A stretch of 53,231 nucleotides of DNA, the filler included, from Squatina squatina (Eukaryota): assembly GCA_031763465.1 (NCBI GenBank). It is 3 parts of 3 records of this genome, joined end to end, with 100 filler letters (N's around TTAATTAATTAA, not from the genome) between each part and the next. Parts side by side here need not be neighbours in the genome. Positions count along the whole stretch, not along the records: positions 15,615 to 33,294 come from JARFOE010000013.1; 2 more parts are not named here. One strand, given 5' to 3'. The notes under the pieces were generated by a model, which worked only from the letters and a program-made list of their open reading frames with translations, was not told the origin of the DNA and did not search any database. The number at the start of each line of letters is the position of its first letter. The stretch's first letter is position 1. A program made the position numbers and the translations under genes. Below are positions 12,795 through 35,578 of the stretch, in pieces.

Positions 12795-12872
12795 TGCAGT
12801 GACTTGCAGAGGAAAGAGAATGTGCAGTGATTTGCATGGGAAAGCGAATATGCAATGATTTGCATAGGAAAG
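12795..12872. repeat. Three 28-bp tandem units, two containing octamer ATTTGCAT
   Basis: TGCA(G/A)TGA(C/T)TTGCA...GGAAAG units start at 12795, 12823 and 12851. Confidence 0.7.
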
Positions 12873-13101
12873 TCCCCCAGAGAAAGCAATTAAATGAATC
12901 TTTACAGGAATTAGATGAAATTTAAAGAAGAATAATTCATACATGCAAAAAAAAAAATCTCACTTGGCACCGTGTATTTGGTTCAATTTATTGGTGAAAT
13001 GTAGACTTTTAGAATTAAAGCTGAATATTTGGTTTTACAGCAGAATATGGAAGAATTGTACTGTAATGTTTGTTTTTCCATGTTCTTGCCTTGTGTTACA
13101 G

Positions 13102-13308
13102 ACGCCCCCTTGTCTGGGGCTTCACTGGCTTTGCTGGCAGAATTTGAGAAGGCGGCAGAACAGCTCAAGGATGAACAGAATCAGGCTAAACTCGGCAAGG
13201 TTGATGCCTCAGAAGAAAAGGAGCTTGCAAAAGAATTTGGAACTCGAGAGTACCCAGTCCTAAAATTTTTCATGAACAGAGACAGGAAAAACCCTCTGAA
13301 CTGCACAG
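13102..13308 (+). CDS. Second PDI-family a-domain exon, non-catalytic SxxS (PDILT-like)
   Basis: ttacag| 207-nt exon (Y)APLSGASLALLAEFEKAAEQLK...LGKVDASEEKELAKEFGTREYPVLKFFMNRDRKNPLNCT |gtcgct; same length and phase as the exon at 11837; SGAS replaces CGHC. Confidence 0.75.
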
Positions 13309-14324: not shown

Positions 14325-15063
14325 GAAATTTGGCAACCTTCCAGTATGGAACAGGCGACCTAGCAAACATCTCACAGTTGGCCATCCATCGCTGCATCGG
14401 GAAGACCTCAGAGGCTCTGTGCTCTAGGAGACGGGAGTTCATTGCCTCCTCTCTAAATGGACAGAAGCAGGAGGAGTGTCCACGTGACTTTGTCATGATA
14501 TTGGACTTCCCCGTGGTGCAGGGTGCCATTGACAGCACACATGGGGCTTTGCGGGCCCTATATCAATGGTGAGATTTTCTGGAACCGCAAAGACTACCAC
14601 TCACTTAATGTGCAATTTGTGTGCGACCACGTCAAGCACATCATGATGATGAATGCCTGGTATCCCCACCAGTCCGCTGTGCCAGCAATCTTCCCAGGGC
14701 CATCCACTCGACACCTTGGCTGATGACTCCCCACCGCAACCCCAGCACCAATGTCCAGCACTCATATAATGAGAGCCATACTACCACCAGAAACGCCATC
14801 AAACAGATCATAGGGGTGCTGAAGCAATGATTCCATTGCCTTGACCGCTCGGGAGGAGCCCTCCAGTACTCACCGGAGTGGGTGTCAAACTCGTGGTGGT
14901 CTGCTGCATCCTCCACAGCTTGTCCATCATGAAACGCAGCCCTTGTTACCAGGGGTTTCACAATCACCTCAGGAGGAAGAGGAGGAAGGCAAGAGGCAGC
15001 CTGCAAATACATGTTACAGATGGGCTGTCCATGAGCGCATCACCAGACTTCGGTTCCCCTGAA
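14325..15063 (+). mobile_element. Degenerate PIF/Harbinger DDE transposase (HARBI1-like)
   Basis: FQ..TGDLANISQ..IHRCI, FPVVQGAIDSTH, NRKDYHSLNVQFVCDH, PWLMTP..NP, YNESH..TRN.I.Q.IG.LKQ*F.CLDRSGGALQYSP, VVCCILH spread over several frames with a stop and deletions. Confidence 0.92.
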
Positions 15064-15514: not shown

Positions 15515-15614
15515 NNNNNNNNNNNNNNNNNNNNNNNNNNNNNNNNNNNNNNNNNNNNTTAATTAATTAANNNNNNNNNNNNNNNNNNNNNNNNNNNNNN
15601 NNNNNNNNNNNNNN
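15515..15614. other. Artificial assembly linker N44-TTAATTAATTAA-N44
   Basis: Self-complementary six-frame stop 12-mer centred in a 100-nt gap; identical copy at 33295-33394. Confidence 0.95.
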
Positions 15615-16809
15615 TGCAGCCTTCAACAAGGTTAACCACACCATCCTTGTCCAAAACCTCTCTTTCGTAGTCCAGTTCCCAGGGACTGCCCTTGCTTGAT
15701 TCCACTCTGGGTTATAGCCAGATTGTAGCCAGAGCAACTTTAGCAATGGTTTCTCATTCCACCCTGGTTCCCTTTTCCTGCTGCTAATCTCACTTGATCT
15801 AATGGCATCTTATCCTGTCCTCTTTTTGCGTGTAATGCTCCTGGATAGATTTTCTCTCTACTTCACAGACTGAGTTCCTGTGAGAGAAAACATTCAATGT
15901 AGGAATACTCAAGTATTTATTCCGACACTTAAGAGCACGTCACTGACTGCAGCAGTTTCCAGATAGATCTTAAAGTACTCCAAGTGATTTAAAGTGTTTG
16001 AATAAAAAGTGAAGGAGCATTTATTTTTGCATTTAACCCCTTTCCCATCTCTCTTGGTCTCTCCATACCATGCACCATCCTTGGCTGAGAGGGCGGGTTG
16101 ACAACTGATTTCTTTGTCAATATCCCTCTAAAACCACACACTGGGAAGTAGGCTAGAGTAGCTCAGGGTGACTCTGCTTCAGACTCTGTTTCTCTCCATA
16201 TGGGGAGCTATCTCACCTCCATACAGCACCTTGTGACAACAGGGTCAAAGTAACAAAGTCATTACATGGGTAATCTCCGGTGGAAACCCAGATCCTACCA
16301 GTCAATGGCACAGCACCTTAGAGCTAAGTGATTAAATCCCTCAAGTATAATGCTGGACAATGTAAATTTTTCATGCATGAAAGGGAAGGTTGAAAAGCCG
16401 ACACAAACACGTGGCAACAGCATGCAGCTTAACAAAATATACTCTTTACCATTGGAACGTTTAATTTGAAAACAGAAAGGCTTGCATTCATATAACATCT
16501 TATCCCATCTATCAGAAACATTTCAAAGTGATTCATATTCAATATTACTTTTAAATACAGTAACTGTTGTCAATGTAAGCAAATGTGACATCTATTTTTC
16601 ACACAGCAAGATCCCACAAACAGCACTGATGGTTGACCAGTTAATCTGTTTTGGTGGTGTTCGTTGGCAAAGGACTGATGCTCTTTTCTATAAATCTTCC
16701 CGTCTTATTTCTAACTACACAACCATTCCCCGATGAACAAAACCTTCAAACAACTCTTAAGTAATGGTGTTTATAATAAGACATGAATAATAGGAATGAT
16801 TATACGGAC

Positions 16810-17042
16810 TCAGTAGTGTAGTGGTTAAGTTGCAGGACTAGTAATGTCAGAGCTTAAACTATTGCTCTGGAGACATGAGTTCAAATCCCACCACAGCAGC
16901 TGTGGAATTTAATTACGGCAAGGGGGATCAGGGGGTATGGAGAGAAAGCAGGTACTGAGTTGAAAGATCAGCCATGATCGTGTTGAATGGCGGTGCAGGC
17001 TCGAAGGGCCAAGTGGCCCACTCCTCCACCTATTTTCTATGA
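16810..17042 (+). mobile_element. tRNA-derived SINE head fused to a CR1 3' end
   Basis: A/B-box-like GTAGTGGTTAAG...GAGTTCAAATCCC followed by GATCAGCCATGATCGTGTTGAATGGCGGTGCAGGCTCGAAGGGCC...TTTTCTATG. Confidence 0.7.
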
Positions 17043-17349
17043 AAGGAATTCAGTCAGAGGGGAGGACGAGGTAGCAAACCGTGTAACAAAGGAAAGTCAA
17101 AAGGTAACCCCTGACAAAAGATGGGAGCAGATTTAAACCGGGAGAAAGATAAAACAAATTACATGGAATGGACTTCCAAGTAGAGCAGTGAAACTAAAAA
17201 TCTGAACTGTTCAATAAACAGCTGGCTTTGTGATGGTTTAGAGGAACTTTCCTTTTTAAACAGAATCAGCAAAGAAAATGGCCTCCTTCCTCTCCAACTT
17301 GCTTTCAGTTTTAATTTCTTACAAAGCCTCTTAGAGCAGGAATGACTCA

Positions 17350-17655
<306 letters not shown>

Positions 17656-18289
17656 CTACAAAGGAAATGATTCAAGTTAATTTTTATTCAAATAAATAAG
17701 TAGCATTTACAAATTAGATTTACAGCCAAACAATTAAGGAACTTAAAGCTCAGGTCATGAAAAGACTCTGCAATCCATCTGGCCAATCTCAAAAACTGAA
17801 CCCTTGGCTCTCGATCACTTACTCCTTCAACTATCCATCCAATTTGATCTTCAATTTTTCTGCACTACCTTCCTCCTTGGAAAGTCTTCTACATGTGTAA
17901 TTGTTTACACATTTTCCCTTCTAAGCTTGAACTAGCAGGTAGCACTCTCAAACAGAAAACATGTACAAAACTGGAAAAGTCCACTGCAGTTTATTTCTCC
18001 CATCCCTAAGAGTACTGAAGTCCCCCTGTAAACTTAATTTTTGCTCACTGGACTACTTGGTCGGCAAGTCACCTCTCTGCACCCCCTGCCCCAACCCAAC
18101 AATACATCATTACAAATGAAAAAAAATCAGTGTGCTCAAGACATCAATTGGGAAGTGAATAAGAATGCCAAGTCATACCATTTCCCCTCCCTGTGCACAC
18201 ATCATAGACTGATGCAGCATAGTGGGAGACCATTCGGACCATTGTACATTACCACGACTGGGAAAGGTAGGGCAACTGAAGTCAGAGCT

Positions 18290-18710
18290 CGCTGGATGAT
18301 GAAACACAAAAAGAGCATGTACGACAAAAGTCAGGGTGCAAATACATCTGAAAATCTGGCTATATATAGAAAGGTCAGAGGGAAAGTGAAAAAGATAATG
18401 AGGGGGCAAAGAGGGTATGAAGATGGCAGCCAACATAGGTCATTCAAAAGTCTTTAATAGGCATATAAATAGTGAAAGGATAGTAGGGCCGATCATGGAC
18501 CAAAAAGGAGACCGATGCATGGAGGCAATGGGTTTGACTGAGGTACTAAATGAGTACCCTCATTAACCCTCTGTTTCATCAGAAAACTCGATCAAGTTAG
18601 TTAAACACGATTTGTCTTTAACAATTCCGTGCTGGCTTTCCTTAATGCACCCCAATCCAAGTGACTGTTGATTTTGTCCCTGATTACCGTTTCTAAAAGG
18701 AAGACGATGC
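18290..18710. mobile_element. CR1 LINE fragments (plus 18290-18560, minus 18560-18710)
   Basis: Plus: KVFNRHINS.R.VGPI.DQKGD...EVLNEY; minus: IKESQHGIVKDKSCLTNLIEF. Confidence 0.8.
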
Positions 18711-19220
18711 TGNNNNNNNNNNNNNNNNNNNNNNNNNNNNNNNNNNNNNNNNNNNNNNNNNNNNNNNNNNNNNNNNNNNNNNNNNNNNNNNNNNNNNNNN
18801 NNNNNNNNNNNNATCAACATAGTCTGTGCATTTTCCATAATGAACCAGCGATAGGTGTGAACGCCATGCTCTGCTTTTGCAGCCTGTATAGCAAAGGACT
18901 CGTGCAACAAATTCCTACCTACGCTTTGCACAGATGTGATGTGATTTGCTGCCCACATTTTGCAAAGCTCGGAGGCAGAGAAGGAGGTGACTGTCTCCAA
19001 ACATAACTGAGTAATTAGCTTTCCCTCACCATCCATAACTTGATAACCAAGAGTAAACTGCCTCCCACCAACAGCACGCAACATCAAAACCACAGACACA
19101 CAAACACTGCCAACAAGAGGATACAGAAAAACAGCTCTGAAGCCTGAACAGACTGGTTGCCATAGTTACCATTTCCATACAGCTACTGGGTAAGCAATAC
19201 CAGCTTTTCATGTTAATTAC

Positions 19221-19258
19221 CTTCCCTCCTGCAGACGATGGCTCATCCTCTTGCTCAT
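19221..19258 (-). CDS. SMARCC1: SMARCC1/2 38-nt exon ((D)EQEDEPSSAGGK)
   Basis: ttgcag| ... |gtaatt; phase follows the 60-nt exon at 20593-20652; resembles DEQDEETVTAGGK. Confidence 0.8.
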
Positions 19259-19565
19259 CTGCAACAAGATTAATTCAGGATATGTATTAGCTTGCACATG
19301 CACGATCGAGCTGTCACAAAGGTGAGACAGACATCAGCAGCCATACTGTAATCATCTGCTTTGTTGTGGAGGCACTATTTCAATTCGATCAATGCTGAGC
19401 TATGACTGAATTACCACACCAACAGGTTTCATTATTATTTGCGACAAGAGGCCATAAGATAACTTGTATTTCTATCCCATCAAGTCACTGTCTGCACTGT
19501 AATTGACAGTGGCAAACAAGCTGCACTGCCATCACCAGAGTGACAGTGAAGTATACCTTAGAAAT

Positions 19566-19690
19566 ATAGCCGATGAATCTGTAGAGAGCATTGCCCTGGC
19601 CTTTCAGAGCTTGCACTGCATCCATGGCAGTCACGGTGCTTGGTGCTCAGTGTAGGTGATCACATCCCCGATCATATTGACCAAGAAAAT
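19566..19690 (-). pseudogene. Histone H4 pseudogene fragment (C-terminal 40 codons)
   Basis: Minus strand IFLVNMIGDVITYTEH/TVTAMDAVQALKGQGNALYRFIG versus H4 [43 protein letters not shown]; frameshifting deletion, stop lost. Confidence 0.88.
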
Positions 19691-19704
19691 GTAAACAAAA
19701 AACA

Positions 19705-20359
19705 CCAAATGTAACCCCACTACTTAAGAAAGGAATGAGGGGGAAAACAGGGAACTACAGACCAGTTAGCCTGACATCAGCAATAAGGAAAATGCCAGAA
19801 TCTCTTAAGGACATGGTAACAGGGCACTTACAAAATAATAATAGGATTGAGCAGAGTCAACATGGATTTATGAAAGGAAAATTATGAAAGTGCATGAAGT
19901 TGTAACGAGCAGAATAGATATGGGGAACCAGTGGAAATGGTGTACTTCAATTTTCACAAGGCTTTCGATAAGGTGCCGCACAAGAGGCAATGAAACAAAA
20001 TCAGGGCTCATGAGATTGGGGTTATATACCAGCATGGACTGAGGATTCGTTAACGGACAGAAAACAGAGTAGGAATAAATGGGTCATTTTCAGGTTGGCA
20101 GATTCTAACTTGTAGGATTCTGCAAGGATCGGTGCTTGGGCCTCCGCTCTTCGCAATCTAGATCAATGATTTGGATGAGGGGACCACATGTAATATATCT
20201 AGGTTTGCTGATGATACAAAGCTCTGTAGAAATTCAAGTTGTAAGGAGGATGCAGAGACTTCAAGGGGATATAGACAGGCTTAGTGAGTGGGCAAGAACA
20301 TGGCAAATGGAATATAATGTGGAGAAATGTGAAGTTATCCACTTTGGTAGGAAAAATAG
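19705..20359 (+). mobile_element. CR1 LINE ORF2 (RT) fragment
   Basis: NVTPLLKKG.RGKTGNYRPVSLTS, SQHGFMKGK, KAFDKVPH, QGSVLGP, LQGDIDRLSEWARTWQMEYNVEKCEVIHFGRKN. Confidence 0.92.
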
Positions 20360-20592
20360 NNNNNNNNNNNNNNNNNNNNNNNNNNNNNNNNNNNNNNNNN
20401 NNNNNNNNNNNNNNNNNNNNNNNNNNNNNNNNNNNNNNNNNNNNNNNNNNNNNNNNNNNTTTCAATAATTCCATGCCAACATTTAAAGGATAATAGTTTG
20501 CAGTCATGTGCAGACTACCCATTTCTTGAGCCAGCTGAGAAAACCAACTTTATGCAGCAGAATTGAGGGGTACAAGTTAAAAATATAATTAC

Positions 20593-20652
20593 CTAGATCT
20601 GCAATTGTGCCTCCCTTCACAGGTGTGTGCTCACTGTCCTTCTTGGGGTTCA
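20593..20652 (-). CDS. SMARCC1: SMARCC1/2 60-nt exon ((V)NPKKDSEHTPVKGGTIADL)
   Basis: tgctag| ... |gtaatt; matches SMARCC1 VNLKKDSENTPVKGGTVADL. Confidence 0.9.
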
Positions 20653-21444
20653 CTAGCAGAGAAAGGAGTTATAAACAGGCCATCAAAAACATATTGAAAT
20701 CAAACAGATTTGAAACCTGAAGTTCTGAGTTTTAAGCAGTTGTCGAATGAATCCACAAATGGTACAAATGCAATCAAAACGTCATTCACTGAGTTCTGCT
20801 CCGAAATAACTTGGCTGAGAGTTCATCAAGCAGAATTTTAGAATATTAATCGAGGGGGTGATAATTTGGCACACTGCCCCTATGGATTTTTTCCAACAGC
20901 AATCCGTATCGAATCCCACGACCCTATTCTGTTGTCATAGCCCTGTACCTTCAAATATTTATCCAATTTTCCCTTCAAAAATACAATGAATTTTGTCTCA
21001 ACAACCCTGTGGCATATCTTTATCTGTGCCAANNNNNNNNNNNNNNNNNNNNNNNNNNNNNNNNNNNNNNNNNNNNNNNNNNNNNNNNNNNNNNNNNNNN
21101 NNNNNNNNNNNNNNNNNNNNNNNNNNNNNNNNAATACCGGAGGACAAGCAGAAATGCTAACACTGGGATGGGACTTCCAACTTGATGAAGGTTTCACAGC
21201 AGGTCGAAGAAATAAGTGCGAGTCTTGAATTTTCATGCACACAGGAGTACAAGTTGGCGTTTTACATTTTTAAAAAATAAAGTACATTTTTACAGCACAT
21301 TGAATATCGGTGTTTCACAGAAGCATAATCAGACCAAAAAACACCACCGGACCCACTCTGCCAGGTAAAAGTGTACAGTACCCCCAAACTCAGTCCCAAA
21401 CCTGCCAATTCATTCAATTAAATACCAACTCTGAGCTGACTTAC

Positions 21445-21530
21445 CATCCTTGCTCACTCTTGAATTTGTAAGCAGCACCTAGGATATGACCCAAGGGACC
21501 CCCGGCCTTGAAATCAAGGAAGCATTTTGC
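21445..21530 (-). CDS. SMARCC1: SMARCC1/2 N-terminal (MarR-like) 86-nt exon ([29 protein letters not shown])
   Basis: ttcag| ... |gtaagt; matches [29 protein letters not shown]. Confidence 0.9.
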
Positions 21531-22720
21531 CTGAAGTTAAAATAAAGAAAAATGAACAAAACTTAGAGATAAAGTTTCTGGCCAATCTCTTTTAAATGCT
21601 GCTTCTATCATATTGATGAAAAATTTGCTTTTCCCTGAATGTTGTTGACAATTTGACTAGCTTCTTTAGTCAGTATTTGTTAAGCACTTCTACAGATGAC
21701 TGATCAACCAACATTCTTCCCCCATATCTTTATCAACAGCCTTCGGAGAGGAGACCTTCGTACCACCTTGTCTGGTTTGGATTTGAGAGTGGGTTCTGTC
21801 AAACTGTGCCATATAACCTCTCAAACCCAGTTACTTTGTGCATATTACAGCAAACATTGGCGACGTCCAGCATCAAAGTTCCAAGAACAAATTAAAAGGA
21901 ATNNNNNNNNNNNNNNNNNNNNNNNNNNNNNNNNNNNNNNNNNNNNNNNNNNNNNNNNNNNNNNNNNNNNNNNNNNNNNNNNNNNNNNNNNNNNNNNNNN
22001 NNGGTTGGGAAGCCCAAAGCCTGCAGCTTTGAACAGTCGGGGCTGATTATTTGTGGCATAATAATTAAAAATATATAAAAACCCCAAAGGGGGAATCAGA
22101 CCCAGAAGTTCGCAGCAATGCAGATAGACACCTGGTATCTGTTGAGTGCAGTTTGTGTTAACATTTCTTTTTGTTATTCAAATAGGGGAGAGAGAAGAGA
22201 AGTAGGAAATTCACTGCCTGGGGTGAGTGCATCCTGTATATTTGTCTCTTGTATTTGCAAAATAATATTTAATACAAAATTAATATCTCACAAACCCTTA
22301 CCCCACCCCAATTCAAATGTAAACTTATTTTTATGTGTTTGATGCAGACTCAATGGTTGGCAAGTTGTATTTTTATATATAAATACTTGCATCCAAGTGT
22401 AACAATTTCCTTGTCCCACCTCCAGAAGAAATTCTGCACAGGCTTTGACTTGTTAATGTTATATCTGCTCATTTGTAATTGTTCCAAAGTCAACATCACT
22501 GCCATCGAAAATAGACTTTTTAAACTAAAGTTTATAATTTTTTTCTTTTTCTGGATTTGATTGAAACTGTTGGAAATGCAGCCAGAGTTTAGTGTCATTG
22601 TTGTGCATTGAATGACTGAACAAGGAAGGGTGGTGATGGGGTTGGGGTAAGTATTTATTGAAGAGGGAAATTGTGGTTTATTGGGAGGTAAACTTTTGTT
22701 TTTACAATAAAAAGAGAAAA

Positions 22721-23164
22721 TGTTAGCTGAGGTACAGTCGTATCATTCTTGTCTGAAGGTTGTGTGTTCCAGTCCCACTCCAGAGATTTGAGCATATAAT
22801 CCAGGCCGACACTCCCGGTACAGTGCTGAGGGAGTGCTGCATTGTTGGTGGTGCCATCTTTGGAATGAAACCCTAAAACTGAGGCCTCATCTGCCCTCTC
22901 AGGTAGCTATAAATGATCCCACAATATTTCAAAGAGCAAGAAAATGCTCCCTGGTCAATATTAATCCCTCAACCAGCCTCACTAAAATGGATGACCTGGT
23001 CTTTATCACCGTGCTGTTTGTGGGAGCTTACCGTGTGCAAATTGGGTGCCACATTACTTACATTACAACAATGACGACACTTCAAAAGTATGTCATTGGC
23101 TGTAAAGTGGTTTGGGACATCTTGAGATTGTGAATGGCGCTATATAATTGCAATTTCTTTTTCT
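22721..23164 (+). mobile_element. Near full-length Deu-domain SINE (SacSINE1-like)
   Basis: tRNA-like head, GTGCTGAGGGAGTGCTGCATTGTTGGTGGTGCCATCTTTGGAATGA core and ...GGCGCTATATAATTGCAA tail; further copies at 25195-25443 and 45690-45895. Confidence 0.85.
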
Positions 23165-23468
23165 TGTATTGGTGATTGGAATTCCATTATTATGGGATTC
23201 TAGCTGGTGCGTTTAGACTCGCTATAAAAATGCAAGTTGGTGTCACATTTCATGTTTCTGTACATTTTTTCCTGTGACCATAGAAAACTAATGACCTTGC
23301 CGATAATATACAAAACAGCGTGATCCCTGGTGATCAGGGCTACTGGATTATGATAACTGAACAAGTGGTATTCTGGAAATTTTACCAGTATTTTGAGGAT
23401 TGAATTGAATTTTCTGCAAAAAATTGGAACCAATAGCCTTGGCTGCAGCTTCTGTATCAACATACATT

Positions 23469-24157
23469 GGGGGCCCAATTAGTTATCCCTGAGTTTGAAA
23501 CATAAGGGGACCAAAGGCCTGTTTTTTGCACCCGTTTTGCACCGGCGTGTTATTTTGCGGGATTGAGCTCCTTAAATTTTTTTTCAGGTGGCCTAGAAAA
23601 TTATCCAGAAATCAGAGCTAATGGGTGCCTGATTGGCAAAAATTGAGCTACACTGGTTTCAGTGGTCCAATTCACCAATCGATCTAAGCAGCTGTAATCA
23701 TGTGTCAGGCCACCTCAGCCCTTAAACGGGCTCTTAATTGAGAGACAAGCACTGCTTCGGTGCTTCGGTCAGCCATTTGCAACAGTGCTGCTGGTTGCAG
23801 AGCTATACTTTTGGGAAAGTGTTTGATTTGGGACTGCACAATTATGGCAGCTGAGTCCAGGAGGTCGAGGGCCCCCAAATTTTCCGATCCTGCACTACTA
23901 AGTCTGGTGGCTGCGGTGGACAGGCTCTTCTCCCCTGCTGGCAAAAGAGGCACTGCCAGAATGGTGCGATGCACTTGCAGGGAGATTGCCACTGAGGTGT
24001 CGGCCTCAGATGTGGCGGAGAGGATGGGCACTCAATGCCGCAAGAAAGTTAACAACCTCACACACACAGTGAAGGTGAGTCTGACTCTTTCAGCAATGGC
24101 CACCTCATGTGTAAGTGTCTCATTTGTAATGTGCCATAGAATTGAGCTTCTGGAAGA
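23469..24157 (+). mobile_element. Harbinger element left end with Myb/SANT DNA-binding gene exon 1 (23844-24074)
   Basis: TIR-like GGGGGCCCAATT at 23469; MAAESRRSRAPKFSDPALLSLVAAV...REIATEVSA...TQCRKKVNNL |gtgagt resembles NAIF1/MSANTD; conserved Trp and Phe residues lost. Confidence 0.75.
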
Positions 24158-25194
24158 NNNNNNNNNNNNNNNNNNNNNNNNNNNNNNNNNNNNNNNNNNN
24201 NNNNNNNNNNNNNNNNNNNNNNNNNNNNNNNNNNNNNNNNNNNNNNNNNNNNNNNNNTTTTTCACGATACTGGTCCCATAGGGCTTATCTGGTATTCAGT
24301 TGCAGTGTGCCTCTCGGAATGTGTGCGAGTGAGAAGCATTTTGTAATGCTTCTGAATTAACCCAAGCAAATTCTTTTTGGCCTCTTGCTTGTGCAGTCAC
24401 ATGATTGAGGGCGTCACTTTTTGCAAGGTCATGGTGGTGTGATAAGCCCTGCAACATAAACAGGAACTGTAGTAGAAACTGTGAACGCTCAGTTCCCAGT
24501 CACTGGGAACGGCAGAGCCTGACTCCAACCTTACTTAAATCAATGGATCTTTTCATTTAAGTCAGAATATCCAGTGTGATGCAGCAGCTGCTGGTTGAAA
24601 TATTTTGTTAAGCCAAAAATAACTTCATCAGCGAGACAGGCTAATAACACGTGCCATTGTGGTTTATTGCAAAGATGTTTTAAGATGCAATAGGTCCATA
24701 CTTACACATCAACAGATTACTTTAAATGCCCATCTGGCTTAAGAATGTTTTCTATGATAGGAATGATGGATGAGAATCATATCCACACCCAACAGTCTAG
24801 ATTGCAGTGAACATTTTTTCTAATTTTGTAACCTGCAGTGTGAAATGTCTCTGCAATTACAGCATGCACTGTATTTTTTTTTTAATTCTATATGATAGTC
24901 ATACGTTTTAATTCAAGAAAATGTTTAGGAGTCATAGCAAGTCATGTTCTGCAGATGGTACGTTTTAGTAATTTTACCCATATAGAGTAACCTGTACAAA
25001 ATTCAGCATCAGTCTTTATTGAGGTGTAACTACAATTCTGCGTTTTATACATTCCACCCGTTTAGCACTTTGTGAAGGAATACAATTAATAGATGAAGTT
25101 TGTTATCACACAGCACAAATATCAACTATAATTTTGCAACAGCTAAAACTCTGAAGAGGTCCCAACCAAACCTAGTACAATAGTAAAGAGAAAG

Positions 25195-25443
25195 CAATGG
25201 AAAGCAAAGAATCTGCATTTATATAGCGCCTTTCATGACCTCAGAACTTCCCAAAATGCTTTACAGCCAATGAATCACTTTCTTTTGAAGGGTATCACTG
25301 TTGTCTTCTAGGGAAACACGGAAACCAAATAGCCACAGCAAGGTCCCAAAAGACAACAATGAAATAAATGACCAGATCATGTGTTTTAGGGCCAAGCACC
25401 AGAAGAATGCCCCTGCTCTTCTTCGAAATAGTGCCATGGGATC
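25195..25443 (-). mobile_element. Deu-domain SINE 3' half
   Basis: TGCATTTATATAGCGCCTTTCATGACCTCAG...CCCTGCTCTTCTTCGAAATAGTGCCATGGGATC. Confidence 0.85.
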
Positions 25444-25559
25444 NNNNNNNNNNNNNNNNNNNNNNNNNNNNNNNNNNNNNNNNNNNNNNNNNNNNNNNNN
25501 NNNNNNNNNNNNNNNNNNNNNNNNNNNNNNNNNNNNNNNNNNNGTAAATGGGAGGGTGG

Positions 25560-26159
25560 GGGAGGGGAGAGGAGAAAAAAAACAAGATGGCCGCCGGCCG
25601 CTTGAAGCGAATGGCTTCCCCGGCTGTGAGTGAAAGCGCTGGCGAAGCGCGGCGGCAGCAGCACCACGGACTCAACTTGGCGGTGGCGTCGTCATCATCA
25701 CTACTGCCGCTGTCGTCGTCGCCTCCTTCATCAGCGTCCTCGCCGCCCTCGTCCTCGCCACTTTCTTCTTCGGCCCCTAACGGCACTTTAGACGAAGGCG
25801 AAGGGGAGGAAAATAATAAAAATAAAAAACTCGTCGGCCCTTTATATTTCTCCGTCGACCGTATGGACACTCTCTTCTTGGCCCGGCCGACCAGAGTGCG
25901 GCGGCGCCCCGAGCCCGAGCTTTTTTACCTCGGCAGCGGCGAGAGGTGCGCCGCGGCCGCTCGAGGAGGAGCGAAAGAGCCTGAGACAAATAATTATAAC
26001 CACCACAACCATCACAACCACCGCCATCATTCTCCTCACCGTCGGCACCATCGCCATCACCAGGCCGGGGAGCCGCAGCAGCGGGGGGTGAGTTCTACGG
26101 CAGACCCCGGCCTCGGCTTAAACAGGGGGGACTCGCGCTTTTGTGGCAAGCGCCAGGAC
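25560..26159 (+). promoter_or_regulatory. CpG island over the 5' end of the KANSL1-family gene, with a YY1 motif at the start codon
   Basis: High GC and CpG density; CAAGATGGCCGCC at 25583-25595. Confidence 0.6.
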
Positions 26160-27286
26160 NNNNNNNNNNNNNNNNNNNNNNNNNNNNNNNNNNNNNNNNN
26201 NNNNNNNNNNNNNNNNNNNNNNNNNNNNNNNNNNNNNNNNNNNNNNNNNNNNNNNNNNNNNNNNNNNNNNNNNNNNNNNNNNNNNNNNNNNNNNNNNNNN
26301 NNNNNNNNNNNNNNNNNNNNNNNNNNNNNNNNNNNNNNNNNNNNNNNNNNNNNNNNNNNNNNNNNNNNNNNNNNNNNNNNNNNNNNNNNNNNNNNNNNNN
26401 NNNNNNNNNNNNNNNNNNNNNNNNNNNNNNNNNNNNNNNNNNNNNNNNNNNNNNNNNNNNNNNNNNNNNNNNNNNNNNNNNNNNNNNNNNNNNNNNNNNN
26501 NNNNNNNNNNNNNNNNNNNNNNNNNNNNNNNNNNNNNNNNNNNNNNNNNNNNNNNNNNNNNNNNNNNNNNNNNNNNNNNNNNNNNNNNNNNNNNNNNNNN
26601 NNNNNNNNNNNNNNNNNNNNNNNNNNNNNNNNNNNNNNNNNNNNNNNNNNNNNNNNNNNNNNNNNNNNNNNNNNNNNNNNNNNNNNNNNNNNNNNNNNNN
26701 NNNNNNNNNNNNNNNNNNNNNNNNNNNNNNNNNNNNNNNNNNNNNNNNNNNNNNNNNNNNNNNNNNNNNNNNNNNNNNNNNNNNNNNNNNNNNNNNNNNN
26801 NNNNNNNNNNNNNNNNNNNNNNNNNNNNNNNNNNNNNNNNNNNNNNNNNNNNNNNNNNNNNNNNNNNNNNNNNNNTTCTTCCTCTTTCACCGAAAGTCTT
26901 ATTAATAACAGTAGTAGTAATAATAATAAACACAAAAGCACTTTGCACGGGAACAGCGCACTGCAGGCTGGATCTTCGCTGCTGAGGAGTAATTTTTCAA
27001 GAACGGATTCGGAAGGTGGTTTTCTTCTTTCCAGTCCCAGCTCTTCCCTTCGATCTGGCGGGAGCAATAAATGTTTATCTTCGCCGAATGGGGATACTTT
27101 CTCTGGTTTTGTGAAAGATCGAGCTGTTTCTGAGGATCTGCTAAAACTGGTGTCCAGCGTAACTACAAAACTCAGGACTTCAGAGAGGGCTTTCGATTCT
27201 GATGCCACCGAAAGCAGCTCAGGGGGCGAGACGGATGTTGAGGATGGCACGGGTGGTGCAAAATTCGAGCATCGGCATGCAGTTCT
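25587..27286 (+). CDS. KAT8 regulatory NSL complex subunit 1 (KANSL1) family gene, large first coding exon (internal gap 26160-26875)
   Basis: MAAGRLKRMASPAVSESAGEA... and ...LRTSERAFDSDATESSSGGETDVE...EHRHAV |gtaagt; matches KANSL1 [12 protein letters not shown] and [24 protein letters not shown]. Confidence 0.85.
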
Positions 27287-27948
27287 GTAAGTAATCAGGA
27301 GGTTTTAGTAGTTTTTGACAGCAGTGTAATTTGTGAAAAAAAATTGATCATGTATCATTGCTCTCCCCATGCTGAAGTATATGTTCTTGGCACTGCAAAC
27401 TACTGTGGCTTTAAAATTCTATAAATGTTTTACAAGAATTGAGGTTTTGTAGTTTTACATTGAGCCCTCCTTCCTTGTTTTGGGTGTTGTCAAAGGAGAT
27501 TTTAGTAGGTCAGCAGTGGATCTGGGTGGAAGAACCCCTTCGGTGCAATGGCATGGTGCATGCATATTGACTCCAGTGGAAGGTTATTGCTGTAAGCTGT
27601 TGCTCTTCGGGTTGCAGAAGTAACAGGAAGCTCTGCAGCACGTCTGCCAGTCAGAGGGTCATTCCATTCTCTCGGAATGTGCAGTAAACACTGCGTGATA
27701 CTGTGTTTTATAAACCTTTTATGCTGGTACGGCATTATGTCCCGACAGAATGGCAATATTGTTTGATCAAATAGACATTGTAAATGCTCAGATTGGCCTA
27801 CATAGTGAAAATATTTAAAATATATTTTCACTATATAGATACATTGAAAATTTCAATATGTACTGTGTGAATCTGTTTTGATTCACTGGTTGTGCAAGCT
27901 GAACCCAGTGAATTATTACCTGATCAGGTAATCGTTTTTGTTTTACAG

Positions 27949-28049
27949 ATATACAGTATAGGGCTGATCGCAGACAGGAAATTCCAGCACTTCAATGCTG
28001 TCCTTGAAGCCTACATCAAACAGCACTTCAGTGCAACGTTGGCTTATAA
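27949..28049 (+). CDS. DOCK2: Isolated DOCK2-like (DOCK-A family) exon, possibly a pseudo-exon or misassembled
   Basis: ttttacag| 101 nt [33 protein letters not shown](K) |gtaagt; near identical to DOCK2 [34 protein letters not shown]. Confidence 0.85.
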
Positions 28050-28844
28050 GTAAGTTCCATTGCAGTAGCTGGCAGTGCAGTAGTCTTGCTTTTAATTGGG
28101 NNNNNNNNNNNNNNNNNNNNNNNNNNNNNNNNNNNNNNNNNNNNNNNNNNNNNNNNNNNNNNNNNNNNNNNNNNNNNNNNNNNNNNNNNNNNNNNNNNNN
28201 TAGACACTCACTTTTCTCTTAAACTTTTCCATTCAGCTCCTGTTCTTCATTTATTTTGATGACCTACCCTCCTGTCTAGTGACCTCACCTGGCACAAGAT
28301 AACCTGGCATTTAAGATAATAATATAAAAAGGGAGAATGTAATTTTTTTCACAGAGGGTAGTTTTAACATGAACTATTCTGACAGAAACCATTATTGAAG
28401 GAGAGTCCACAAGTTTTTTCAAAGTTGCTTCAAAATTTGTTGTCTTGTCATGTGTGACATGATGTATGCTTAAATATCCACCTCATATTAAAAAAAGAGA
28501 CAAGCTCCTCATATATATCCTAAGAGCTGTGTGCAATTCCTTTGCTGTTCCTTCCTCACCATTTCCCACATCAGAGAATATCGAATCTTCTGGAACATAC
28601 ATATTCAAATCGAGGTGGGGGGAGACTCCACAGCACGAGAACGTGAATGAATCTTCCCAACCTGCGCCCCGATGTTTTGTATATCTTGCCATGATAGAAC
28701 CCTGTGTTGTATTGTACCTTTTTTGGACCCTGTTGCAACAATTATGTTTTTTGACATTTGCGCTAATCAACTTGAAACTAAGATTCAAGATATGTCATGC
28801 ATTTATTCCTGCAGAAGAGTTGACATTTACATTTGTTCACACAG

Positions 28845-28986
28845 ACACCGCCGTTCAGAGTGGAGATGGGCCGCAGAAAGGGCAGCGATTGTCAACCGTT
28901 GGACATGGTTGCAAGCTCAGGTCTCTGACCTGGAATACCGAATAAGGCAGCAGACAGACATCTACAGACAGATCCGTGCTAACAAG
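28845..28986 (+). CDS. KANSL1-family coiled-coil exon
   Basis: acacag| (L)[47 protein letters not shown] |gtaggt; 142 nt; phase fits the donor at 27286. Confidence 0.93.
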
Positions 28987-29589
28987 GTAGGTGCAGAGGT
29001 TGACCCTGGAGCAGAAGTTTTATTATTTTTCCCCATTCCAGGATAACTCCAGCTACTTAAATGGTTGTACATTTCAGTGTTTGTTCAGAAACTTAGGTGT
29101 GTGGTGTGGCAAGGGTATACTGTTCTCCTTTAGCCATTGTGTTCCAGGCACGACATTCACTGTTTTTGGGCACCACTTTGATTATATGTGTGCAGGAGGG
29201 AGATGGAAATGCTCTTGTACGTGACTTTAAATGTTGGGTCTCATTAACTTGCATTCAATTGAGAGTCGGTTGTGTCTTCTAACAAAAGAGTAGATACATT
29301 CTGAAGTGGAGTAAGGTTCAGGACTATGAGAGAGAACAATGCAGTGTGATGTGTTTTCAATTGCTTAAGTGAAGAGCCAGCACAGTCAACATGAGCCAGA
29401 TGGCTTCTGTGGTTTTATGTCAGCAAGCTCTTGCCTTTTTTCTCCACTATAAACAAAAGTTACTTTCTTCTTCTTACCACATTATAATCAAATACTGCTG
29501 TCATCAAACAAGCTAGATTTCTACAAGGATTTTAATTTCCGTCTGGTAGTTTGCATCCATGTCTGTTCACTTTGTCTTTATGCCAATTC

Positions 29590-29819
29590 TGCCACATCCA
29601 GCCATGAATGATGGTGGACAATTAAACAACTCATGAGAGGAGGAGGCTCCATGAATATTCCTATCCTTAATGATGACGAAGCCCAGCACGCGAATGGAAA
29701 AGACAAGGTTGAAGCTTTTGCAACCGTCTTCAGCCTGAAGTGCCGAGTGGATGATCCATATCTGTCTCCTCCTGAAGATTTGTGCTCCAGAACTAGCCGC
29801 GCCTCTAGCCAAGCTGTTC
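29590..29819 (+). mobile_element. Non-LTR retrotransposon (CR1/L2 supergroup) ORF2 fragments
   Basis: TSSHE.WWTIKQL..GGGSMNIPILNDDEAQH..KDKVEAFATVFSLKCRVDDP / KICAPELAAPLAKLF. Confidence 0.7.
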
Positions 29820-29945
29820 NNNNNNNNNNNNNNNNNNNNNNNNNNNNNNNNNNNNNNNNNNNNNNNNNNNNNNNNNNNNNNNNNNNNNNNNNNNNNNNNN
29901 NNNNNNNNNNNNNNNNNNNGAAAATGTTTTTCTTTTCTCTTTCAG

Positions 29946-30076
29946 AGTTCTCGCCTTACACAGTCACTGGGAAACCTCATCTGCCCCACCAGCCCTTCTT
30001 GTAGCTCCCCCTCAAGCTCTTCACTACTGTCTAAGGTCTGCACGCCGCCAAGGCAACTAAATGGACTGCTGAACAG
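29946..30076 (+). CDS. KANSL1-family internal exon
   Basis: tttcag| SSRLTQSLGNLICPTSPS...PPRQLNGLLN |gtgagt; phase fits the next exon. Confidence 0.8.
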
Positions 30077-30243
30077 GTGAGTTACTTTACATTGCATGGG
30101 TCCTTGTGGCTGAGGTAAAAAGGACGTAGAAGTATTTTGCACTACTGTTTCTCGTCAGCATTTAGAAATAACATTTTTTTAAAAAGATTTGGAATGTTCC
30201 CATCATTTGCCTCACCGGCTTTTATCTATTTTTAATATTACAG

Positions 30244-30448
30244 TTTGCATTCCAGTCCTTTGGACAACAGCTCGCTGGACAGCTCGGACACAGAAGAGAT
30301 CTTGAGTAAAAGACAGCGACTGGATGGTCTTACCGTCCCTCCATCACCACCAGACAACAGTTGTGTTGCTGCCAGAGTTCGTCCTGTCCGGAGGTACAGG
30401 AGGAGGAGGCTGGTCAGATCTAATCTGGCATGTTACCTTGGCAGAAAG
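30244..30448 (+). CDS. KANSL1-family exon with the WDR5-interaction (WIN) motif
   Basis: ttacag| LHSSPLDNSS...SKRQRL...DNSCVAARVRPVRRYRRRRLVRSN...RK |gtacgt; compare KANSL1 DGTCVAARTRPV. Confidence 0.9.
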
Positions 30449-30507
30449 GTACGTGCCTCTCGCTGACAGCTATTGAATATTGCATAGGTTGTGGCTGCTG
30501 TAAATTC

Positions 30508-30930
30508 CCCCAGTGCTTTAGTGGTTTAGTGCATTACGTGGTACTGCAGTGAAACTTGTAGCCCAGAAAGTCCAAGGTTCAGCCCCTGGTCTGTGTTGAG
30601 TTAGGTGATCACAGATGCTGTCGGGTTGCAATTGGCGTTGGTTGGTGTTCCCAGTCCACAGAATGGAAAAGGCAGCTGAAGTTCTCACTCCTGAATTGCG
30701 CTCTGGTGACTTCTGCTGTAAACTATATGTGGCTGGATGGGTGAGACTGATCTGAACTGGCATAGCTGCCCTGCCCTTCCTCACCCCTCACCCCCAGCAG
30801 TGATCGAATAGCTTCCTACTAGAAAGATTCATACTTAAAGAATGGTCACTTGAATGAGGTGCCAGAGGGCTGTTGATATCCATGGAATTTTGCCCAGCCA
30901 TGAGTTAGCTCCTTCCCAAAGGGAGGCGAA
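30508..30930 (+). mobile_element. tRNA-derived SINE (family not named)
   Basis: tRNA-like head (GTGGTTTAG...GGTTCAGCCCCTGGTCTGTGTTGAGTTAG); related fragments at 33530-33740 and 43830-43970. Confidence 0.6.
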
Positions 30931-31391
30931 CACTTGAGAAGAGCATGTGTGGTGAGTTAATTGTCTGTGAGAAATGACCTACCCACTCTTAGAACCAACT
31001 GGATTGTAGAAAAGCAACAGCACAAGGAGACCAAACTGATGCTAGCATTCTCTTCAGTCCAGTGGAAGAGTGAGATTATGAATACTGACCAGGAAGATCC
31101 CAGATATAGAACATAGAAAATACAGCACATAACAGGCCCTTCGGCCCACGATGTTGTGCCGNNNNNNNNNNNNNNNNNNNNNNNNNNNNNNNNNNNNNNN
31201 NNNNNNNNNNNNNNNNNNNNNNNNNNNNNNNNNNNNNNNNNNNNNNNNNNNNNNNNNNNNNATCTCACAATCAACAGTGAAATGAATGCCAGTGTTGAGA
31301 TCATTTCTGAGAGATGTGGCAAGATGCAATGTAGTTAGAAGCATTACTTCAAACAAGCACTGTCTAATCATCTCCCATTTTTCCTTCGCAG

Positions 31392-31452
31392 CTGGCGAAT
31401 TGCAGACGTTGAACAGTCGAAGCTGCAGAATTGCAAGTTGGAGGATGACCAG
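31392..31452 (+). CDS. KANSL1-family PEHE-domain exon
   Basis: tcgcag| (S)WRIADVEQSKLQNCKLEDDQ |gtagtt. Confidence 0.85.
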
Positions 31453-31559
31453 GTAGTTTATTACACATCAGAAATTTAAGAAAGTCCATGGAAAATTAGT
31501 GAGTCTGTCTTATTTTGTTGTAAGATTTTAAACTATTCAATTGTCTCTTTAATACATAG

Positions 31560-31672
31560 TACGAGGAGTTGTCTGACGAAGCCTTCCTTAATCGCCATTC
31601 CAAATGTGAGGAAATGGAACGTTCTAGATGGTGCTTGTGGTCTTCATCCAGCTCGGCCAGGCGGGGGAGCAG
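31560..31672 (+). CDS. KANSL1-family PEHE-domain exon (MOF/KAT8 binding)
   Basis: acatag| YEELSDEAFLNRHSKCEEMERSRWCLWSSSSSARRGS |gtaaac; compare [24 protein letters not shown]. Confidence 0.92.
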
Positions 31673-31799
31673 GTAAACATGATGTTGGAAGTTTCTGGAT
31701 ATTAGTTCCTGTTTAGAATCTGCAAATTAATTTGGATCACACTGTCAGTGCACAGGAACAATTAGTAGTAGTAAAATGTTCTTCAATCCACCTCCCAAA

Positions 31800-32100
31800 A
31801 ACTAATACCCCTCAATTGCCCACTCCCTCAAATATTTAACTGATTCTCTTTTAAAATTCCCCACATTACCTGCTTCCTTGGGCAGTTCATTCCACATATT
31901 TGCCTCCTTCTGTGTAAAGTAGATGAGTTTAAACTGCCTGTGCATCATCCCTCTTTGAACCTTGAGACCTTGTCCTCTTGTTGTAGCAGTAGGCCATTCC
32001 ACCCGTCGAGCTTGTTCCAACATTCAATTAGTTTAGGACTGATCTGCACCCCAACTCCATTCACCCACTTTTGATTTATCCTTTTCGTACCCTTAAAGAT
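31800..32100 (-). mobile_element. CR1 LINE 3' fragments
   Basis: Minus ORF TRGQGLKVQ...YFTQKEANMWNELP...FKR plus the CR1 3' stem-loop. Confidence 0.75.
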
Positions 32101-32224
32101 TGTTTCCCTTCTCTCCTCTTATTAGCTAGCATTCATCCTCATCAAATGCCATTTGCCATTTATCAGCCCGCTTTTCTAACCCATCCAAGTCCCTTTAAAT
32201 TTGGTTTACCTGTTCCCTACTATA

Positions 32225-32987
32225 ATTTGGCGTCCCCTGAAAATTTGGACAGCCTCATTTCTGTACCCAACTCCAAAGCACATTTGGGGGCCTGATTGGT
32301 CTGCTTTTGACCCGTGATAGACCCGAACAGTGGCATTACCCGTGCGCTAAAGCAGCATAAGTGCCAATTTGATAAATTTCTAGAATTGGGCATGGCGCCC
32401 TGGCGGCACAAAGGCCTCTTCACCGGGGTAAGGCACGCAACGTCATCAAGTCGTACGCCGACCCCACAGCATCACCCTGCAACCCCCTTTGGTGTCACCG
32501 GCAAGCTGCTGCTGGAATTGGTCCCCGGCTCGCCGGTGAGGCCCGCGTTGTTGGGAACAACAGGTTTGACCTGTCATTTCCAACGCCACTTAAAGGGCAG
32601 GTGATTGTGCCGCCGGCTGCCATTTCTTTTACATCGGCTGACTTCCGCTAATCAGCCACCAGCGTCGCTACACACACCCGGCTCTCTGGTGGCCTAGCGG
32701 CATGCCCCGAGACTCCGTTGCCTCAGCTGGCGGCCCTCCCATTTAACGCAGAGGGTGAGGCCGTGGTTGACGCCAGCGCGTTGCCAACACTAGGCCGCAT
32801 TCGCCGGCTTAGTGCCGGGTCGGCGCCTGGTCAGCACTTCGTTACCGCTGCCACATTGCGCTGACCTGGAAAAACGGCAAGGATCCCAACTGGGGGTCAG
32901 GAGACAATGCTCCAGGGCAGGTGCTAAAATCCCGAGCCCCGAACCAATTCACTCCCCGGTCGCTAGCAATAACCAATTGGGCCCCCA
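32225..32987. mobile_element. GC-rich non-autonomous DNA transposon(s), Harbinger-like
   Basis: CpG-rich non-coding block ending in TIR-like CCAATTGGGCCCCC near 32986. Confidence 0.5.
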
Positions 32988-33294
32988 CCATTCTGAGCTT
33001 CTTATGGATCCACCCCTGTTTATTACCAGGTTGGCCTGGCAGGAAAGCTGCAACGGGCTCACCATGCAGCCCTCAGGTTAAAACCATCCGACCATATTTA
33101 AAGAAGGACCCCACTGCCATCTGGCAGGTATATTTATTGTCTGGTGTGAGATTAAGAGGTATCACAAGACAGGTGGGTCATTATTCCAGGTTTCGTTTTA
33201 ATTCTGAGCAATGTTTCCGTGGCTGTGATGAAGACAAAGCAAGTAGTCGTGTCTTTCGGAAGTGTCCCTGGCAACTGTGTGAGACTGAACCAGA

Positions 33295-33394
33295 NNNNNN
33301 NNNNNNNNNNNNNNNNNNNNNNNNNNNNNNNNNNNNNNTTAATTAATTAANNNNNNNNNNNNNNNNNNNNNNNNNNNNNNNNNNNNNNNNNNNN
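33295..33394. other. Artificial assembly linker N44-TTAATTAATTAA-N44
   Basis: Same six-frame stop linker as at 15515. Confidence 0.95.
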
Positions 33395-33467: not shown

Positions 33468-33936
33468 AAAATGAACCTAGTCCGTGCTGAATTATCTGAA
33501 TTCAACCTGGTCAACGGTGAAAGGGGGGAATGGGGAAGTCAACCAGGTTGCCTTGCACTTACTTGTTCATTCTCCAGTGGTGCCTGCTGGAAAGTGCATT
33601 TGTGGACAGTGGGGAAGAATTGGCCATGATGCCCTCCCCAGTCAAATAACCTATATTTCGGCGAGACTGACAGACGAGCAGTAAGGCCTAGCCTCAGTCA
33701 CTAGCTTCAGCAGAGGAGGGGAGAATGTTCAAGGCGGGAGAAAAAGAAACATTGAATCGGGTGTAGAACGCCTTGGGCTGATTTTCTACATTAACGCATG
33801 GTGTTGTTGAAGAGAATACTTTGTTTAATGAACATGTGTACCTTAATACAAATTCTAACTTTTCTCATCCTGCAAGGGTGTCATTAATTTGACACATCTA
33901 TATAACTTCAGTGTTATAAAGCTAAGATGGACTTAC

Positions 33937-34113
33937 CAAAAACAAAGCTACTGTGCTGCCCAGTGCGAAGCCCGCAATCACATCGGAGCAGTGATTGCGA
34001 TATTCAGACACCCGGTTCAGTCCTGTTAAGAAAGCAGCGCAGAGAGCCCCCAAGCACAACACGGGTTTGGCTAATCTGCTGCTTTTGGTCTTTATCGTGC
34101 TTGTGATGTACAT
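33937..34113 (-). CDS. PLPPR1: Phospholipid phosphatase-related protein 1 exon
   Basis: tttcag| MYITSTIKTKSSRLAKPVLCLGALCAAFLTGLNRVSEYRNHCSDVIAGFALGSTVALFL |gtaagt; 177 nt; near identical to PLPPR1. Confidence 0.92.
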
Positions 34114-34676
34114 CTGAAATAGAACGAGATCACACACAGAGATCAATGGCACGGGTACACTTCTTCATGTTAAAAAAAATGAATATTGATGATTCGCCGC
34201 TGAATTGTGCGATGCTTCCTATACTTCAAAAGTACTTCACTGGCTGTAAAGTGCTTCGGGAAGTCCTGAGGTCGTGAAAGGTGCGATATAAATGTAAGTA
34301 TTATCTGTCGTTCAACTGAAATAATCCTTAATTTATTTTTCTTCATGGTAAAAGTTACCAGAGCATAAAAAAATAAACTAAATATTCAAAAGTATAACAC
34401 GTGTTCTCCACTGTGTTACTCCATTCAATTTGGTTTCTGTTTTTTACAGAACAGCGGGAGGTGGTATTGCACTGTGCTGACTGAGATGTGTGAAGAGTGG
34501 TCTGAATAACTGACTACCTGAAGTTCCAAAGACATCAAAACGTTCAAAGTCTGCAATAGCTTTTCATTCAGTTTTTNNNNNNNNNNNNNNNNNNNNNNNN
34601 NNNNNNNNNNNNNNNNNNNNNNNNNNNNNNNNNNNNNNNNNNNNNNNNNNNNNNNNNNNNNNNNNNNNNNNNNNNN

Positions 34677-34905
34677 TCAAATTGGCCAGACCAGGTAAGG
34701 ACAGCAGATTTCCTTCCCTAAAGGACATCAGTGAACCAGATGGGTTTTTACAACAATCTGATAGTTTCTTGGTCCCCATTACTGACACTAGCTTTTTATT
34801 CCAGATTTATTTAATTGACTGAATTTAAATTCTGCCAGCAGTGAGGATTTGAACTCACATCTGCCAGATCATTAGTCCAGGCCTCCAGTAACATAACTAC
34901 CGAGC
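34677..34905 (-). mobile_element. tRNA-derived SINE (same family as the head at 16810)
   Basis: GGTAAGGACAGCAGATTTCCTTCCCTAAAGGACATCAGTGAACCAGATGGGTTTTTACAACAATC...GGATTTGAACTC. Confidence 0.7.
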
Positions 34906-34997
34906 TATCGCATCCAACAAGTGTACCTACCGTTCCCAACATGTAATGGAAATACATCAGCCACGTGAAGGGCGCCTGAAATGAAATACACTCTTAC

Positions 34998-35248
34998 CGT
35001 AGCGTACAAAGCACAATAGATGCTCAAAGATGCATCCTTCGATGGAAAAGACCTCCGTGCGTTTGCAATGACTTCAGGGTTCCCAGTGCAGATGTGTTCG
35101 TTAGTTATGAAGCGAGAATGGGAACGGCAATCAGTTCCTGTGTAATTAGGTTTGCAAACGGTTATAAAGTATGGGGTTAGGCTCCCTGTGACCACTTGGC
35201 CCGCGTTTACAAATATATCCGTAGCAAACAGTCCAAATGCAAACACAC
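34998..35248 (-). CDS. PLPPR1: Phospholipid phosphatase-related protein 1 exon
   Basis: caatag| (G)VFAFGLFATDIFVNAGQVVTGSLTPYFITVCKPNYTGTDCRSHSRFITNEHICTGNPEVIANARRSFPSKDASLSIYCALYAT |gtaaga; 251 nt. Confidence 0.92.
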
Positions 35249-35578
35249 CTATTGGGGGAAAAAAAACACAAAACTCATGAATAGATGTTACTCCTTTCTG
35301 TGTTCTGAGATTAAGCTACAACACTGCTTCACTTAGCCACTTCAGTGTGTGACATCGACGTCAGCTATTTAGCTAAACCTGCTTTTCTAATTAATTTTCA
35401 GGGCATTTCCATTTTTCAGACCAATGCTTTACAGCAGGGACATCCAATGTGTTGGAGCTGGGGGTCACTGTCACAACCGCTGAGTGGACCACATGAGATT
35501 ATGCAGTAACCAAGTCCCGATTCACAACAGTGTGAGTTTTCCACGCATGAAAAATCGAAGCTCCCCCAGACCCAAAAT

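Follow-up and report, generated by a model that had tools for sequence, protein, structure and literature searches.

A third KANSL1-family gene linked to SMARCC1 in the shark Squatina squatina: a likely genome-duplication sister of KANSL1 and predicted NSL scaffold

A stretch of 53,231 nucleotides from the draft genome of the shark Squatina squatina (GCA_031763465.1; hereafter, the window) contains, at 25587..31672 on the plus strand, a gene of the KANSL1 family. It is practically certain that this gene is a third ancient paralogue within the family. Our overall reading, to which we assign a probability of about 0.72, is that it is linked to SMARCC1, is likely a genome-duplication copy and the sister of KANSL1, and is predicted to provide the NSL complex with an alternative scaffold. 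The first-pass annotation of the window had proposed a third gene distinct from KANSL1 and KANSL1L, which is borne out by the presence of all three in whale shark, by the tree and by topology tests; what it had put forward as a candidate undescribed system is instead a paralogue, so far unrecognised, of a scaffold that is already known.

The gene is represented by six plus-strand coding exons with GT-AG ends, which join in frame without stops and encode 546 residues within the window. They correspond to residues 1–187, 422–605, 675–789 and 1040–1097 of a sawshark protein of 1,274 residues (P0001, labelled only 'KANSL1-like' in the database), with identities of 85–100%:

25587..27286, plus strand: first coding exon, aligned by tblastn to P0001 residues 1–187 (92%) and 422–558 (85%)
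28845..28986, plus strand: exon for a conserved amphipathic helix with an RWTWLQ motif, 98% to P0001 residues 559–605
29946..30076, plus strand: exon for a Ser-rich linker, 98% to P0001 residues 675–718
30244..30448, plus strand: exon for the WIN motif, with SCVAARVRP at 30359–30385, 96% to P0001 residues 719–789
31392..31452, plus strand: exon of the PEHE region with a conserved Trp at its start, 100% to P0001 residues 1040–1060
31560..31672, plus strand: exon for the PEHE helix with invariant Glu, His and Glu, aligned by tblastn to P0001; downstream exons are missing from the window

The equivalents of P0001 residues 188–421, 606–674, 790–1039 and 1098–1274 fall in assembly gaps. Of the earlier description, the exon structure and the WIN motif stand; the first long helix, the zinc motif and the two ends of PEHE are lost to gaps. 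Within the first coding exon a run of 716 N (26160–26875) masks approximately 234 codons; a contig from a relative (X19 record 11) spans both sides of this gap, with 781 nt between them. The 3' end of the same exon carries an acidic DSDATESSSG motif, and its start lies in a CpG island, the piece 25544–26159 (GC 0.61; CpG observed/expected 1.07, the window maximum) being the sole CpG-island-like piece of the window.

Splicing was assessed from contigs of four sequencing runs of related species, drawn from four studies, in which introns are skipped and for which RNA status is a guess made by the tool. The joint 27286>28845 is present in three of the four runs, and four later junctions (including 31450>31558) are present in every one. 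All four runs also place 206 nt between 28987 and 29943, corresponding to an exon absent from the window assembly. The third gene is thus spliced in these relatives; among the runs listed, none contained RNA of the window itself. The first intron also contains, at 27949–28049 (plus strand), an exon of the DOCK family that is 101 nt long, has AG/GT ends, is situated on a gapless piece and matches Pfam TPR_DOCK (E=5.9e-14) and DOCK5 chains (E=2e-8). The match of one relative's intron-like contig is lost at 27935, and the exon occurs in none of the listed joints. It represents either a chimeric assembly or a lineage-specific insertion, and would shift the frame if included.

The cleanest evidence for a separate third gene, and one that is independent of any tree, is provided by whale shark, in which three loci lie on contigs of 38.3 Mb (KANSL1, P0047), 99.3 Mb (KANSL1L, P0400) and 121.4 Mb (the third gene, P0005). 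The window gene is 92% identical to the last of these, compared with 54% to KANSL1 and 38% to KANSL1L. That the window gene is simply KANSL1 or KANSL1L of the shark, brought next to SMARCC1 by misassembly, would be in keeping with the draft state of the window, which is a patchwork of 40 pieces parted by gaps (median 1.2 kb; 5,175 N), with the foreign DOCK exon, and with the naming of some orthologues as plain KANSL1 in RefSeq. Such an artefact is hardly credible, however, as the occurrence of three loci in one genome refutes it, the identities point to the third gene, and the link to SMARCC1 is seen again in all 26 species that have both genes on record.

Family members were gathered with P0001 residues 480–1274, which returned 1,451 matches. 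The best 120 of these were examined and, with the fragment P0004 excluded, comprise 33 KANSL1 and 87 third-paralogue proteins; KANSL1L is absent among them and was sought among representatives at 50% identity (329 at E<=1e-30, the best 150 listed, ten of them named). A FastTree phylogeny of 139 rows, for which 24 of 142 new representatives had been dropped as shorter than 720 residues, resolves three vertebrate clades. The IQ-TREE analysis (LG+G4) was based on 44 hand-picked rows and 567 columns, 250 of which are filled by the window, and included eight outgroup rows called invertebrates from their place in the FastTree tree. Here the window falls within a third clade of 13 rows, extending from shark to opossum (support 98/97), and not with the KANSL1 or KANSL1L orthologues (each clade 100/100), which is the placement that the first-pass annotation had anticipated. 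KANSL1 and the third gene are united apart from KANSL1L (100/98), and the cyclostome rows lie outside all three clades (95/88). Each clade contains both shark and bony-vertebrate rows, placing the duplication after the split from invertebrates and before that between sharks and bony vertebrates. In approximately unbiased (AU) tests, a grouping of the shark copies with KANSL1L was rejected (p=3e-5), as was a shark-only duplicate of KANSL1 in which they join shark KANSL1 (p=1e-49). The window gene is accordingly not a KANSL1 orthologue, as it lies outside that clade and sharks own a separate KANSL1, nor is it a KANSL1L orthologue, a role filled in whale shark by P0400.

The neighbouring gene was identified by protein identity as follows:

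17398..21536, minus strand: SMARCC1, four surviving exons (aligned at 21536–21444, 20653–20594, 19259–19221 and 17655–17398)

These exons are 92–100% identical to shark SMARCC1 (P0125/P0126) versus 69–92% to coelacanth SMARCC2 (P0221), and SMARCC2 was rejected as the neighbour on these values. SMARCC1 and the third gene occur on the same contig in all 26 species that have both on record, namely 10 sharks and rays, coelacanth, lungfish (with a ceiling size value), 11 frogs, one lizard, bowfin and bichir; the count was made by hand, with equal size of the carrying record serving as a chromosome fingerprint. In whale shark, SMARCC1 (P0271) resides on the 121.4 Mb contig of the third gene. The two genes carry consecutive accession or locus numbers in seven of the 11 species in which both were seen (horn shark, two catsharks, coelacanth, Xenopus tropicalis, Xenopus laevis and Hymenochirus). 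The adjacency is thus both old and real, and the scaffolding artefact against which the first-pass annotation had cautioned can be set aside.

The two genes diverge, SMARCC1 on the minus strand and the third gene on the plus strand. The proposed head-to-head arrangement thus holds for orientation, but the 5' and 3' exons of SMARCC1, including those for residues 1–83, are absent from the window, and three N gaps separate its nearest exon from the KANSL1-like start codon. As an addition to the overall reading, the pair could share a bidirectional CpG-island promoter that couples the supply of NSL and BAF. The divergent orientation, the CpG island and the consecutive gene numbers in seven species would suit this arrangement. 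With SMARCC1 exon 1 absent, three intervening gaps, and conserved adjacency alone being normal for an old gene order, we regard the idea as tentative and somewhat doubtful.

The N-terminus had been described as unlike that of KANSL1. Window residues 9–38 nevertheless match a hidden Markov model of 61 KANSL1 and paralogue N-termini with 13.9 bits, a score reached by none of 500 shuffles, and a MAPALTEA-type motif still starts the coelacanth, frog and opossum orthologues. The shark N-terminus is thus a modified form of that of KANSL1. In four ray-finned copies (P0345, P0352, P0395 and P0412) the family motif is replaced by another conserved, aromatic-rich start.

The WIN motif of the window retains its Arg, the Arg at +2, the Pro at +3 and both flanking valines, and SCVAARVRP matches the KANSL1 585–598 peptide given in the available text of PMC4018492. 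Under a strict pattern the motif is present in 78 of the 87 third-paralogue proteins versus 32 of 33 KANSL1 proteins. A putative zinc motif follows it, with cysteines in 87/87 versus 32/33 KANSL1 and the His in 86/87; the corresponding window exon falls in a gap. The TPSW of the PEHE region is found in 79/87 versus 33/33 KANSL1, and the E/D/F/H pattern in 75/87. P0001 has retained each of the 22 family-invariant residues, and 14 of these positions fall in parts covered by the window. Pfam PEHE (PF15275) is matched by P0001 with E=2.9e-26, of which the window covers residues 1040–1097 only, and no PEHE match was obtained in a Pfam search with each window exon alone. In an AlphaFold model of a frog orthologue, 654 of 968 residues (68%) are of low confidence (predicted local distance difference test, pLDDT, below 50), with confident helices at 125–175, 184–207, 246–292 and, for the PEHE helix, 748–772; the helix at 246–292 is that of the RWTWLQ exon. 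An Atlas search returned PEHE clusters and nothing further.

The third gene was very probably born by genome duplication. A first duplication would have parted KANSL1L from the common precursor of KANSL1 and the third gene; a second would have parted KANSL1 from the third gene, with placental loss occurring afterwards. The available text of PMC10972751 groups Hox cluster A with B and C with D, and the union of KANSL1 with the third gene versus KANSL1L would match this (A,B)(C,D) pattern. PMC4815063, in its available text, sets out the pairs MAPT–KANSL1 and MAP2–KANSL1L together with a 3p21 block that holds MAP4 and MYL3 and, in that text, no KANSL gene; its three supplementary files contain no KANSL match. 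Human SMARCC1 adjoins MAP4 (PMC4143624, available text). Alternatively, KANSL1 could have been copied, singly or within a segment, before the split between sharks and bony vertebrates, and this ancient duplicate could have moved beside SMARCC1. KANSL1 is indeed the sister of the third gene, and the accessible part of PMC4815063 unites MAP2 with MAPT versus MAP4, unlike the KANSL pairing. Yet the pairing fits the Hox pattern, the same text assigns 3p21 (MAP4, MYL3) to the 17q21/2q34 paralogon, and the cyclostome rows stand outside all three clades; such a transposed duplicate is improbable.

The 87 third-paralogue proteins derive from sharks, rays, coelacanth, lungfish, amphibians, turtles, tuatara, lizards, birds and marsupials, and the gene is also found in ray-finned fishes (paddlefish, bichir, bowfin and bonefish). 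The earlier statement that it was lost in mammals does not hold, as opossum, devil, koala, wallaby and dunnart retain it. No placental mammal occurs among the 87, and to our knowledge the human gene set holds KANSL1 and KANSL1L only. Placental mammals have thus very probably lost the third gene.

Several points, besides the MAP2–MAPT pairing, weigh against the overall reading. The AU test keeps a tree in which the shark copies are sister to the whole KANSL1 clade (p=0.063), and the ray-finned clade joins the third clade at just 70/53, so that its place there rests on the SMARCC1 linkage in bowfin and bichir. Gene numbers are non-consecutive in four of the 11 species (sevengill shark, lungfish, Dendropsophus and Hemicordylus), and the SMARCC1 pairings cover no bird and no marsupial. 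The placental loss is read from a lack of placental copies in the 120 best of the 1,451 matches and from the human gene set as generally known; chimaeras and monotremes are likewise without a copy among those matches. Tetrapod copies are shorter (typically 740–1,000 residues) and lie on longer branches, and for this reason the function may have drifted in tetrapods. Finally, the residence of SMARCC1, KANSL1 and KANSL1L on the HoxA, HoxB and HoxD chromosomes, and the linkage of the third gene to MAP4, are presumed.

Database names obscure the gene. In RefSeq, 'KAT8 regulatory NSL complex subunit 1' denotes the SMARCC1-linked paralogue in X. laevis (P0297), X. tropicalis (P0334), coelacanth (P0291) and bowfin (P0395); in coelacanth and bowfin a true KANSL1 is also present under the same name, and no frog KANSL1 proper was found by name among the named proteins. 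The other database entries for the third gene are automatic 'KANSL1-like' models. A full-text literature search, which took in few subscription papers, found no paper naming a third, SMARCC1-linked KANSL1 paralogue. The available main text of PMC3296468 contains no KANSL name, although its supplementary table S3 might list the chicken copy, and the accessible portions of PMC4918316 and PMC4848543 add nothing on the subject. The paralogue is well supported and apparently unrecognised so far. The idea that the morpholino of a Xenopus study of Koolen-de Vries syndrome (bioRxiv 2024.11.14.621349) struck the third paralogue was dropped: in the available text its target reads Met-Ala-Ala-Met, versus Met-Ala-Asp-Met at the start of the X. 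tropicalis paralogue. From the morpholino sequence, that knockdown most likely hit KANSL1 proper.

Because its WDR5-binding and PEHE motifs are conserved, the third gene is predicted, with good likelihood, to encode an alternative NSL scaffold. KANSL1 is described as a disordered scaffold that binds MOF via PEHE, WDR5 via Arg592 and PHF20/MCRS1 via its N-terminus (PMC4018492 and PMC6607013, available text), and by analogy with this biochemistry we infer every binding step for the third-gene protein. It would be largely disordered and bind KAT8/MOF through the PEHE helix, its WIN arginine would insert into WDR5, which would recruit KANSL2, and its N-terminal part would serve PHF20 and MCRS1. 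The protein may thereby stand in for KANSL1 in some NSL complexes and partly buffer KANSL1 dose. A true ohnologue could, on the other hand, have ceased to be an interchangeable scaffold: it might be specialised for certain tissues or for the cytoskeleton (spindle, cilium), or act as a competitor, binding WDR5 or KAT8 with no full complex being built. The longer branches and shorter N-termini of tetrapods, already counted against our reading, would favour this, as would the presumed dispensability in placentals and the microtubule roles ascribed to KANSL1 itself in the literature available. The retention of the WIN, zinc and PEHE motifs in most of the 87 proteins, the CpG-island start, and the spliced contigs in all four runs make it distinctly unlikely.

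Compared with its relatives, the predicted scaffold most resembles KANSL1 (NSL1/MSL1v1), its sister clade, with which it shares the N-terminal motif, the amphipathic helices, the Arg, Arg, Pro and Val of WIN, the zinc cysteines, PEHE and a mostly disordered chain. It differs in having its own locus, next to SMARCC1 on a large chromosome, in an identity of approximately 50% to KANSL1 of the same shark, in the helix motif (RWTW, versus RWNW in KANSL1), in the extended, His-rich N-terminus of sharks, and in not being seen in placentals among the matches examined. KANSL1L (MSL1v2) likewise arose by duplication within the family in vertebrates and has a PEHE domain, but it forms a far more diverged clade (35–38% identity) whose grouping with the shark copies was rejected, and its chromosome is a different one in whale shark, in paddlefish and in painted frog. 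With MSL1, the scaffold of the MSL complex, the alignment covers the PEHE helix and pairs its Glu, Phe and His, which reportedly act in MOF binding. The match is weak (E=1.1, to the MSL1 PEHE of 2y0m), no other solved relative was found in the PDB sequence search, and homology at the level of WIN was not seen. Hidden paralogy combined with lineage loss is shared with other ohnologues lost in placentals (Wnt11b; 147 chicken genes in the available text of PMC3296468).

Within the MAPT/MAP2/MAP4 paralogon, the third gene would occupy the place at which a KANSL gene was missing. KANSL1 is the gene behind Koolen-de Vries syndrome, and the case is one of hidden paralogy in a haploinsufficient disease gene, the databases often labelling the third gene 'kansl1'. 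Work that models KANSL1 in frog, fish, chick or opossum should verify the target of each probe or guide and allow for buffering. A link between loss of the paralogue and KANSL1 haploinsufficiency is testable. More speculatively, and in our view unlikely, all jawed vertebrates other than placental mammals may have two kinds of NSL complex, one built on KANSL1 and one on its SMARCC1-coupled sister; loss of the sister would have left placental KANSL1 without a close back-up, which would explain why Koolen-de Vries syndrome follows from the loss of a single copy, and models in frog, fish and chick would be buffered by the third gene.

Two of the gaps in the window, 15515–15614 and 33295–33394, contain a central TTAATTAATTAA spacer with a stop in all frames and are likely artificial joins between separate, unrelated scaffolds. 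The spacers divide the window into three blocks, carrying a Rho-GDI and a thioredoxin-fold gene, SMARCC with the KANSL1-like gene (15615–33294), and PLPPR with paralemmin. As the spacers read as scaffold joins, the finding rests on the middle block only, and gene order across either should not be trusted; PLPPR and paralemmin on the right, and the Rho-GDI and thioredoxin-fold genes on the left, were rejected as neighbours for this reason. The left block has Rho-GDI exons followed by thioredoxin-fold exons (5572–13331, plus strand), an order presumably similar to the ARHGDIG–PDIA2 pair. In the right block, exons of the PAP2 family (PLPPR-like; 33925–35312, minus strand) are divergent to a paralemmin gene (47900–52635, plus strand) with a CaaX box at its end. 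Weak Pfam matches to Myb/SANT-like (23742–24155, plus strand) and DDE_Tnp_4 (14327–15059, plus strand) fragments are likely relics of Harbinger-type transposons.

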